From positions 19,778,001 to 19,842,000 of the forward strand of contig NC_086108.1 in assembly GCF_963921235.1 (NCBI RefSeq): a DNA stretch of 64,000 bases, in the 5' to 3' direction. Numbering within the stretch: the stretch's first letter is position 1; every line of letters begins with the position of its first letter. Positions 46,001 to 53,072 of this stretch are shown in pieces. This stretch comes from Mobula hypostoma. Lineage: Eukaryota. A model generated the notes under the pieces. That model was not told the DNA's origin. It did not search any database and saw only the letters and a list, made by a program, of their open reading frames with translations. Made by a program: the position numbers and the translations under genes.

Positions 46001-49000
46001 TGCTTTGATGTTGTCCAAACAGGTAAATCAGCACTTCACTGGGCAGCAGCTGTAAATAATGTGGATGCAACTCGGGCCCTGCTAAAGAACGGAGCCAACA
46101 AAGACATGCAGGACAACAAGGTAATAAAATTGTCTCTGTTAAAGCCGCCTCCCCTCCCAGTTTGGGTATTGACAACGAGTTTAACCCAGCCAAATGTGGA
46201 GTGTTGTACTTCAGGCCAGCAAAAGTAAAGAGACAGTACACAGTTAACGGCAAGATCCTTAACAGGGGAACCTTGAAGTCCAAGTCCATAGCTCCCGGAA
46301 AGTGCCTACGTTGTTTGATAAGGCTGGTAAAGTATGCTTGCTTCCTTAATGAGTCAAGATATTGAGCTCAGGAGTCATGAAATTATATTGCAGTTTCATG
46401 AAAATATATGAAACTTCATAAAACAGTTGCTTTTGGAATATTTCATTCAGTTCTGGCTGCCCCGTTATAGGAAGGATGCCGAAACTTTGCACAGGGTGCA
46501 GATGATGCTGCCTGGGCTAGAGGGCATGTGTTGTAAGGAGATATTGAACATACTTGGGTTGCGCTCCCTGGAGCAGTGGAGGCTGAGGGGAGATCTGATA
46601 GAAATTTATGCAAGGCAGACAGTATCCTTTCCCCACGGTCAGAATCTCTGATGCCATAAGGCATGCGGTTCAGGTGAAAGAGGCCAAGTTCAAAGAACAT
46701 GTTCAGGGCAAGTTTTTTTACGCAATGTTTGGTAGGTGCCTGGGATGTGCTGTTTGGGCTACTGATGGAGGCAGATATAATAAGGCATTAATGAGCAGGG
46801 AATGGAAGGAATGGGCTTTGTATAGGCAAAAGGGATTAGTTTAGTGGAGCATATTAGTTTGGCACAACATGTTGCACTGCTGTTCCTGTGCTGTACTGTC
46901 CCAACACATTCCCATGCTGAATTCTGCAGGTTCCTAATGTGCCATTCATTCCCTGTCAGTTGATCCCACACACTCCCGTCAGTCTGTGTCCTTGTTCCAG
47001 CTATCAGCATAGACCATGGATGACTGGATATTTCCCAACTGTTTGAAACCTTGCCTGATTACCCTCCACTCCCATTATTATGACAGTTTTATCCCCCAAA
47101 ATCTCAACAAATCACTTACTCTGAATCGAATCTAATCTAAACCCCCTCCCTACCCCACACGCACACACACCAAACTACACCTTGCTACAATAGGCCTGCT
47201 AACGGGGTTTTTAATGTGGAGTAGAAGGCTAAGAGAGAGAATGCAGGCCACAGCTCACCCTTTCCACATTCTAACAAACGGGACATTGGTCAGGTAGGAC
47301 CACAATATCAGCACAACTTATCAATTGGAGTAAGTTTGTCATGTGACTGCCAGTCTTTGCCCTTGCCCTCATCCACACTAAGCCCCCCCCTCCCCAACAT
47401 GAATAGTTATACGGTAATACACAGTTGTTGATGCATTTACGATTTTGGTACCAACTTACCTGAAAGTTTGTGAATTAAATGGCTTGTGGTCACTTCTCCT
47501 CCAGCTGTTGCAAAGACAGTGTTGAAAACCCAACATATGATGCTAGTTGAAGTTGGGTTGATCCTGGAATACAGAGGGTTAATGTTTGGGGTTTTAAATA
47601 TTTTGGATAAATAGCACTTTCCATAAGTGAATCAGAAGTCTGAAAACAGCATCTTTCACTTAGTTTTTGCAAATATAACTGAGCCCATTTTGCAAAATAA
47701 ATCCAGTTTAATGAAATTTATATTCAAGCCGGAAATTGGAACAAGATGGGAGAATAGTTTAGCTCATGGTGGAGTGGAGGAGCAGACTCGATGGGCTGAA
47801 TGGCCTACTTCTGCTCCTTTGTCTTGTGATCTTGTGACAGAAAACTCAAAACATTTCTTCACAGTATCGCAACTGAGATTCAGGCAGCAACTGTGGAGGA
47901 AAATGGGCAGTCAGCACTTTGACCCAAGACCCTTCATCAAGATTGGAAAGAAAGGACCGGTTTAAAAAGATGGAGGGAAAGGGGTGTAGGAGGTGCTTAC
48001 ATGTGGTAGGTGGGTCCAGGTTGGGGGGAGAGGTTAATAGGCAAGTGAGGGAGCAAGTCTGGGTGAGCACATGGTCAAATTGAGCAGCAAGATCATAGGA
48101 CAGGACTAGTGACACAGTTGCAGAGAAGAGGAATGCTTCTTCATACCTTGAAGAGACCTCACAGTGGAGCAGCAAACTAAAGACAATCGCAACTACGGAT
48201 GCCAGAGTCTGGAAAAACCTGCTGGAGATTTCAGCATCTGCAGCTTTCAGTGTCTCCAAAACGAAGTTCCTTTGCTTTCCTGTGGATGATGAATTCTGCC
48301 TCATTTACATATAACAAGCCTGGATTTTTAAAAAAGATTAGATTTTCACGTGAAACACACACAAAATGTTGGAAGAGTATAGTCGACATTTTGAGCCGAG
48401 ACCCACTTTTTCTTTCTTCCATGGCCTTCTGTCTTCTCCTTGCCCCTTCTCCAGCCCTGAATCTCTTTCACCAATCAGCTTCCCAGCTCTCTGCTTCACC
48501 ACCTCCTCTCCAGTTTCATCTATTGCCTTGTGTTTCTTCCTCCCTCTCCACCCCCCCCCCCACACTGACTCCTCATCTTTTTTTCTCCAGTCCTGATGAA
48601 GGGTCTCGGCACGCAACATCAACTGGTTACTCTTTTTCCGTACATGTTGCCTGGCCTGCTGAGTTCCTCCAGCATTTTGTGTGTGTGTTGCTTGGATTTC
48701 CAGCGTCTGCAGATTTTCTCATGTTTGAGATTTCATATATAAACACCAAACTCTCTTGTTCTTTCTGCAGGAGGAGACACCCTTGTTCCTTGCTGCAAGA
48801 GAAGGCAGCTTTGAGGCCACCAAGATTTTACTGGACCACTTTTCCAACCGTGACATCACAGACCACATGGACAGACTGCCCCGGGACATCGCTCAGGAGC
48901 GAATGCACCACGACATCGTGCAGCTGCTGGATGAATACAACCTGGTCCGGAGTCCCCAGGGCCTGGGTGGACCCATGGTGGGCCCCACCATGTCCCCTGC

Positions 49001-52567: not shown

Positions 52568-53072
52568 GTAAGTTTGTGTGACTGCCAGCCTTTGCCCTTG
52601 CCCTCATCCACACTAAGCCCCCCCCTCCCCAACATGAATAGTTATACGGTAATACACAGTTGTTGATGCATTTACTATTTTGGTACCAACTTACCTGAAA
52701 GTTTGTGAATCAAATGGCTAGTGGTCACTCCTCCCCCAGCTGTTGCAAGGACAGTGTTGAAAACCCAACATATGATGCTAGTTGAAATTGGGTTGATCCT
52801 GGAATACAGAGGGTTAATGTTTGGGGTTTTAAATGTTTTGGATAAATAGCACTTTCCATAAGTGAATCAGAAGTCTGAAAACAGCATCTTTCACTTAGTT
52901 TTTGCAAATATAACTGAGCCCATTTTGCAAAATAAATCCAGTTTAATGAAATTTATATTCAAGCCGGAAATTGGAACAAGATGGGAGAATAGTTTAGCTC
53001 ATGGTGGAGTGGCGGAGCAGACTCGATGGGCCGAATGGCCTACTTCTGCTCCTTTGTCTTGTGATCTTGTGA
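52568..53072 (+). repeat. 3' UTR copy of the duplicated segment; last ~95 bp are a CR1 3' tail
   Basis: Ends ggcggagcagactcgatgggccgaatggcctacttctgctcctttgtcttgtgatcttgtga, like other CR1 tails in the window. Confidence 0.93.

Follow-up and report, generated by a model that had tools for sequence, protein, structure and literature searches.

The two copies and their CR1-type tail

The window analysed here, a stretch of 64,000 nt of Mobula hypostoma DNA (contig NC_086108.1, positions 19,778,001 to 19,842,000), carries Notch2 exons on its plus strand and, on either side of the terminal coding exon, two copies of a segment of 505-508 bp that ends in the 3' tail of a CR1-type retroelement. With the penultimate coding exon ending at 46121 and the last one beginning at 48771, the copy at 47330-47837 sits in the last Notch2 intron; the copy at 52568-53072 lies 2.4 kb downstream of the Notch2 stop codon and is presumably part of the Notch2 transcript. 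The protein encoded by the terminal exon finds its best match in a Notch2-like protein of Hemitrygon akajei (95%), followed by bird NOTCH2 (51%). In the list below the copies are named for the direction of copying supported by the relatives, and A to D are the four coded organisms of a sequencing-run search made with the 3' stretch, which gave 24 runs.

46022..46121 (+), penultimate Notch2 coding exon (ankyrin repeats); tblastn of P0002 gives 100% over 33 aa, and a GT donor comes next
47308..47326 (-), 19-nt stretch left of the insert, resembling the reverse complement of the source 5' end (~52564-52581); 17 matches, 3 gaps
47330..47837 (+), derived (acceptor) copy, with the CR1 tail behind ~396 bp of host sequence; 3 nt more than the source at 47339-47341; contigs of A and B cross its 5' joint
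48771..50166 (+), terminal Notch2 coding exon, 464 aa up to the stop codon (50164-50166), preceded by an AG acceptor
52568..52964 (+), source (donor) host segment, low copy, downstream of the stop; present in relatives B, C and D

When the window is compared with itself by blastn, the two copies align in direct orientation at 97.2% identity, the 508 columns holding 11 substitutions and a single gap of 3 nt; 4,730 bp separate the copies, which are 5,238 bp apart from start to start. The initial annotation, made from the sequence alone, had described direct repeats of ~97-98% identity placed 5.2 kb apart around the terminal exon, with homology stopping right after a terminal repeat, and both statements agree with these measurements: identity ends directly after TCTTGTGATCTTGTGA in both copies, a word that occurs twice in the window against 0.02 occurrences expected. 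The same annotation's non-repetitive part of ~410 bp corresponds to a host part of ~390 bp that has no further match within the window at E<0.07. Its CR1 part was put too short at ~95 bp and measures about 108-112 bp, with a start at 52961-52965. A difference-free run of 177 bp between the copies is not significant (P 0.08).

Polyadenylation hexamers are found just before the source copy (52531), within it (52931), 85 nt past it (53157) and further on (54310 and 54431). A Notch2 transcript ending shortly past the CR1 tail is possible.

Both copies end in a hairpin plus two TCTTGTGA 8-mers; according to PMC8665684, a hairpin together with short (8-bp) repeats defines the CR1 3' end. The features of the tail and of its longest relative in the window are as follows.

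47730..47837 (+), CR1-type 3' tail of the intron copy; predicted hairpin z -2.69, two TCTTGTGA units
52961..52964 (+), upstream member of the 4-bp repeat AAGC, the target duplication of the CR1 tail; the D contig stops fitting at the equivalent place, 47729
52965..53072 (+), 5'-truncated CR1-type tail in the 3' region; predicted hairpin z -2.28, core hairpin z -2.92
53072..53075 (+), downstream member of this AAGC pair, its first base shared with the tail end
61081..62786 (-), longer related long interspersed element (LINE) copy, reverse transcriptase (RT) domain followed by a related tail; Pfam RVT_1 E 1.6e-31, tail 73% identical over 82 bp

The AAGC duplication flanking the 3'-region tail falls within the 3-5 bp described for L2 and CR1 insertions in PMC4245944. 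The remark that no target duplication is evident therefore has to be divided: it is wrong for the tail in the 3' region and right for the intron copy, where none is convincing and only chance-level 3-mers occur, 14-26 nt off the joint; for CR1-made insertions, target sites that are blunt or truncated occur as well. A degenerate long duplication (47301-47318 versus 47860-47874) was considered and rejected as too diverged for an event only 2-3% old.

The terminus of the tail can be aligned with six older tails inside the window. At 61081-62786 an RT frame (61788-62786) is followed by a related tail, which ties the tail to a non-LTR retroelement (LTR, long terminal repeat). That copy, little decayed, comprises the 3' half of a CR1-like second open reading frame, split by a single frame break at ~61787 into frames of 332 and 208 aa. 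The CR1 label of the tail and the RT frame is putative and goes by tail anatomy and sequence motifs.

The tail belongs to an abundant subfamily. The tail bins reach a read depth >100,000 in runs of A and B, and the subfamily reads roughly 700-1,000x the flank depth. Among the 32 contig pieces listed, 9 are other copies of the family, and their fit likewise ends at 47837 or 47838. As unrelated family copies stop at this place, it is a common family terminus, which by itself does not tell whose tail the intron copy carries. The two tails of the duplicate differ at 2 of about 108 sites and agree in the number (two) and the phase of their repeat units. A 25-nt word from the tail had no match in metagenome contigs and none in viral contigs.

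Sequencing runs and relatives

Four of the 24 runs were compared over 46500-48520, namely X7 (A), X9 (B), X18 (C) and X20 (D, guessed to be RNA), with no DNA run of C or D among them. In the search that gave the 24 runs, the word shares were 0.97-0.99 for A, 0.68-0.71 for B, 0.54 for C (two runs; four more C runs gave 0.00) and 0.19 for D. None of these runs is recorded as RNA; eight of A and B and two of D are guessed to be. One contig of A (X7), fitting 46580-47384 with 0 differences, reaches 55 letters into the intron copy and bridges its 5' joint; a contig of B (X9), fitting 46580-47371 with 18 differences and no gap, does the same with 42 letters inside. The intron copy, including its 3 extra nt, is therefore present in a second species, the flanks of which diverge by 2.4% from those of A, and an assembly artefact is unlikely. 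On the 3' side, the contigs of A (47811-48431, 0 differences) and B (47810-48431, 16 differences) hold 27 and 28 letters of the copy, below the 31-letter rule for bridging, and among the contig pieces listed none spans a complete copy.

Read depth, a rough guide and not a copy number, gives 14.3 for the host part in A, where the flanks read 9.6 and 9.69 and the expectation is 15.0 for two copies and 20.4 for three; in B the host part reads 7.43 and the flanks 3.6 and 3.53. A host part at 1.5-2.1x flank depth, next to tail bins above 100,000 in the same DNA runs, is hard to reconcile with a dispersed family, and two copies, the alternative that the initial annotation had preferred to an ordinary repeat family, fit well.

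Two smaller observations concern the similarity of the copies to each other. The shared contig of B at 47342-47761 (X9) reads 2.06-2.10x its flanks as against 1.49 in A, a weak hint that the two copies of B are nearly identical through later gene conversion, unless it is noise at a depth of 3.6. In a cytosine run at 47383 and 52618, both copies of A are one C longer than the contigs of B and C, by either parallel slippage or conversion between copies.

The relatives bear on the direction of copying. For eight of the 11 substitutions, those of the host part with 47354 left outside, the bases of B, C and D could be read. All three organisms carry the base of the 3' region at 7 of these 8 sites; the exception is 47500, where C and D agree with the intron copy and B with the 3' region. 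This skew gives P 0.07 on its own, and with 7 of 8 differences derived in the intron copy the direction from the 3' region to the intron, assumed at the outset, is supported. Within the tail, family copies read C (53%) or T (44%) at 47778, so the A of the intron copy is derived, and 47797 is uninformative for polarity. The earlier statement that CpGs kept in the untranslated region (UTR) are mutated in the intron needs correcting: of the two tail differences, just one is a CpG transition (47797) and the other is a change from CpG to ApG (47778), and at 47441 the CpG stands in the intron copy.

The host part of ~395 bp has long been part of the 3' region, and D has it without the tail. The D contig (X20; 1,468 nt) fits 47383-47729 at 95% and continues with 1,113 non-fitting letters, with no second piece on the tail. 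Position 47729 is equivalent to 52964, the end of the AAGC word that is found again at 53072-53075; on the simplest reading, D would have an empty tail site and AAGC would be the target duplication of the tail. The contig of C (X18; 10,494 nt) ends in the segment, fitting 47342-47782 with the tail present. Its fitted part is preceded by 10,042 nt, that is, 2,410 nt of 3' region and 7,632 nt more. Given a Notch2 coding part of about 7.4 kb, the contig hints at a spliced Notch2 message. At the 5' joint of the tail (52961-52967 / 47727) C has 12 more nt, lying between two GCC words and absent from both copies of A and from the B contig; their loss is likely a microhomology deletion and a usable phylogenetic marker. 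The contigs of C and D do not cover the intron flanks and are uninformative on the intron of these organisms.

The simplest order of events thus begins with the host segment, as we read D, followed by tail insertion, the 12-nt loss, the intron duplication, one change in the 3'-region copy and the split of A and B. The best explanation of the duplicate is a dead, neutrally decaying intronic copy that was made once, before that split.

Origin of the intron copy

At its 3' end the intron copy stops within 1 nt of the tail terminus and does not include the target duplication of its source. Beyond the joint the acceptor reads CAG; the same three letters occur 2 nt later in the donor and may be a weak microhomology. 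On the 5' side the joint is patched: 3 extra nt, common to A and B, stand nine bases into the copy. The inverted look-alike at 47308-47326 may be templated filler or a short inversion: 0.3-2.9% of random pairs score as high (five scoring schemes; the likeness was noticed before it was tested), and it vanishes against the insert's own 5' end, where 22-43% of controls score as high. Extra nucleotides templated from nearby sequence occur at the 5' joints of fish LINEs, as described in PMC4760211, and in break repair as well, as described in PMC2671141, so a patched 5' joint cannot separate an RNA from a DNA route. The evidence on the mechanism is divided: size, distance, the patched joint and the lack of a target duplication fit repair, and an end placed precisely at the tail terminus suggests CR1.

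The reading that we prefer, with a probability of roughly 45%, is tail-guided local copying, with a further CR1 of this subfamily present at the intron site. As the relatives show, a 5'-truncated CR1 tail inserted downstream of the Notch2 stop with its 4-bp target duplication and later lost 12 nt at its 5' joint. A second CR1 at the intron site, either in the middle of target-primed insertion or resident and broken, would then have supplied the 3' joint. Its free end may have paired with the near-identical tail 4.7 kb off, on DNA (synthesis-dependent strand annealing) or on a nascent transcript, and synthesis would have run on for ~395 bp into the unique host sequence upstream of the tail, until the new strand was released and end-joined to the left flank with small patches.

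This reading is attractive on several counts. The exact end at the tail suggests that CR1 made or guided the 3' joint; the locality, the size and the two-copy state fit repair-mediated duplications; and since the terminus is common to the family and the subfamily is abundant, the exact end is explained without chance. The patched 5' joint and the absence of a target duplication at the acceptor also speak for it. Tail pairs of this subfamily in the same direction and within 5 kb are expected at about 0.35-0.7 per genome, only some of which would yield copying (like the other per-genome expectations given here, this is a rough figure that assumes a 3.5 Gb genome and event numbers and uses depth ratios, which are not copy numbers). 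DNA-level copying can stop at the tail too, if a second CR1 supplied that end, a case missing from the outcomes that the initial annotation had listed as refuting its proposal.

Several points weigh against tail-guided copying. The tail of the intron copy shows no trace of an independent second CR1; its 2 differences in about 108 sites are both best read as later intron changes and its repeats are in the same phase, so plain copying of the 3'-region tail would be simpler. The nearby second insertion of the same subfamily that it needs is a rare coincidence, and the per-genome figures are rough, resting on the assumed genome size and depth ratios. For templated L1 insertions, bioRxiv 2024.08.27.596794 gives a typical size <250 bp and a distance of up to 15 bp from the site, both far below the values found here. 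Finally, the empty intron site was not seen, as B carries the copy and the compared runs of C and D are not DNA.

Two known classes of event come close. In human repeats, Pace et al. 2009 (PMC2671141) report that 824 of 1,136 two-copy insertions lie <=5 kb from the donor and reach up to 619 bp, in a class of pieces of at least 50 bp marked by one other copy, microhomology or filler, and no poly(A). The Notch2 duplicate resembles this class, as there described, in having two copies <5 kb apart and <619 bp long, with a donor in the 3' region, an acceptor in an intron, no poly(A), a patched joint and no clear target duplication. Unlike those events, it has one breakpoint exactly at a CR1 3' terminus and a size near the top of the range; no LINE-tail-anchored class is described and no cartilaginous fish surveyed in the accessible text of that study. 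The second class comprises L1 insertions for which bioRxiv 2024.08.27.596794 describes the growing LINE cDNA switching template to nearby homologous DNA. There too a LINE 3' end is joined, on its 5' side, to duplicated neighbouring genomic DNA; in contrast to these human cases as presented in that preprint, the tail here is of CR1 type, and the copied piece is 395 bp long, comes from 4.7 kb away, and is germline and found in two species. The duplicate acts like a repair-mediated or LINE-templated local duplication, and full membership, which awaits the empty site, is not claimed.

The strongest rival, which we nonetheless think rather unlikely, is a CR1 retrocopy in trans, in which RT would bind the hairpin in Notch2 RNA, start at the internal repeats and copy 505 nt into the same gene, perhaps from nascent RNA used beside its own locus. 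It needs no second CR1, and it accounts for an end exact to within 1 nt that leaves out the source target duplication and keeps hairpin and 8-mers intact. Tail-sharing short interspersed elements (SINEs) are reported to be mobilised in this way, in sharks and rays too (HE1/HER1, PMC3747384; PMC5729268), 5' truncation and extra nucleotides are described as usual for fish L2/CR1-like inserts (PMC4245944; PMC4760211), and the 10,494-nt contig of C has a length fitting a spliced Notch2 message, given the coding length stated above. Conversely, a landing <10 kb from the source is expected only 0.0006-0.006 times per genome (for an assumed 100-1,000 ordinary retrocopies), the intron copy is without a 3-5-bp target duplication, and the insertion site lies in the same gene, 4.7 kb from the source, not at an unrelated position. 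The copied piece is wholly within one exon, so intron loss cannot mark an RNA intermediate. In PMC2671141, poly(A/T) tails as marks of retroposition accompany 0 of 39 proximal primate duplications, as against 17 of 29 distant ones; the duplicate has no poly(A/T) at its ends, but it ends in a CR1 tail, the CR1 counterpart of such a mark. The accessible portions of the relevant literature offer no support for a locally biased use of nascent RNA by CR1. Of the CR1 retrocopying proposed in the initial annotation, the direction and the genuine CR1-type 3' terminus are supported; the RNA intermediate is not, given the single exon, the missing target duplication of the intron copy and a source only 5 kb away. 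The broader notion that CR1 RT can start at a tail inside a host transcript, pasting upstream host sequence near the gene being transcribed, seems to us quite doubtful.

Retrocopies of other kinds provide further comparisons. The mRNA retrocopies made by L1, as described in PMC5470649, have in common with the duplicate, should it stem from RNA, a 5'-truncated piece of a transcribed host region; they differ from it in their poly(A) and 13-15-bp target duplications, and the piece copied here ends inside the 3' region. According to the same source, the need of CR1 for its own 3' end limits hitchhiking by host RNA. CR1-tailed SINEs (HE1/HER1, PMC3747384; TguSINE1 and PittSINE, PMC5729268) are reported to consist of a noncoding 5' part and a CR1 tail with hairpin and 8-bp repeats, as does the duplicate. 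Unlike these, it exists in two copies, its 5' part is host 3' region, and it has no tRNA, 5S or 7SL head and no ordered A and B boxes: there were 0 Rfam matches at E<=1 in 46100-54500 and 0 tRNA genes, and the box patterns gave a single A-like and a single B-like match, which lie in the middle of the element on opposite strands and not as an ordered pair. The suggestion that a SINE was being born here accordingly finds no support, as there is neither an RNA polymerase III (Pol III) head nor any spread.

A plain repair-mediated duplication, in which a break in the intron was patched from nearby DNA and the end fell at the tail by chance or microhomology, is improbable. The duplicate answers the general description of such events in PMC2671141, which counts hundreds per genome (824 in human, 80 in zebrafish) and 11 human donors in 3' UTRs; the weak CAG microhomology at the 3' joint would also fit, and this case was picked for its coincidence among very many windows. 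Nevertheless, with an assumed 500-2,000 duplications, chance would place an end within 1 nt of a tail terminus only 0.001-0.15 times per genome, and the 505 bp copied lie towards the upper limit of the sizes given there (mean 162, maximum 619).

A dispersed SINE-like element, an assembly error or an intron copy that is itself the source are together scarcely credible: X7 may be the source sample and the 3' joint overlaps are as short as stated, but the host-part depths in A and B, the 5' joint bridged in a separate organism, the 3'-region bases of C and D at 7 of 8 sites, the segment without tail in D and the missing Pol III head all oppose them.

The duplicate is a real, well-ordered single event, and it raises the testable question of a role for CR1 tails in seeding local copies of host sequence. 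Taken alone it looks neutral, an intronic duplicate whose presence or absence is a clean marker for ray phylogeny, to which tail insertion, 12-nt loss and duplication offer three nested characters. On the usual view CR1 copies little host RNA, given its need for a 3' end of its own, and brief local duplications are ascribed to break repair; a duplicate anchored on a CR1 terminus stands between the two. CR1-group elements are reported to make up 22-34% of shark and ray genomes (PMC13343379). Should such duplicates prove enriched genome-wide, CR1 tails in sharks and rays would be places from which adjoining host sequence is copied locally. Should local retrocopying by CR1 be true, genomes in which CR1-group elements take up a quarter to a third of the DNA would have an overlooked route, biased towards nearby sites, for copying pieces of UTR and intron, and a way round the scarcity of host retrocopies made by CR1. 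A full-text literature search, with most subscription papers and supplements outside it, returned no host segment with an embedded CR1 tail copied into its own gene; comparable cases may lie in the tables of PMC2671141.

Other elements in the window

The repeat pair 1433-2275/5342-6200 was examined as a second tail-anchored case and rejected, as it is an LTR pair. The two LTRs, 95.9% identical and of the form TG...CA, bound a minus-strand element at 1433-6200 with a 4-bp target duplication; it has a SCAN domain in a gag-like frame (E 2e-13), and its inner part of ~3.1 kb is too short for a whole pol. At 39071-39989, three related arms of ~140-160 bp occur in direct and inverted orientation, with a 118-bp near-palindrome at 39706-39959, and the element looks like a non-autonomous DNA transposon. 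Inverted arms of ~110 bp (88%), 174 nt apart, lie at 27742-28134 in a short intron between two Notch2 exons.

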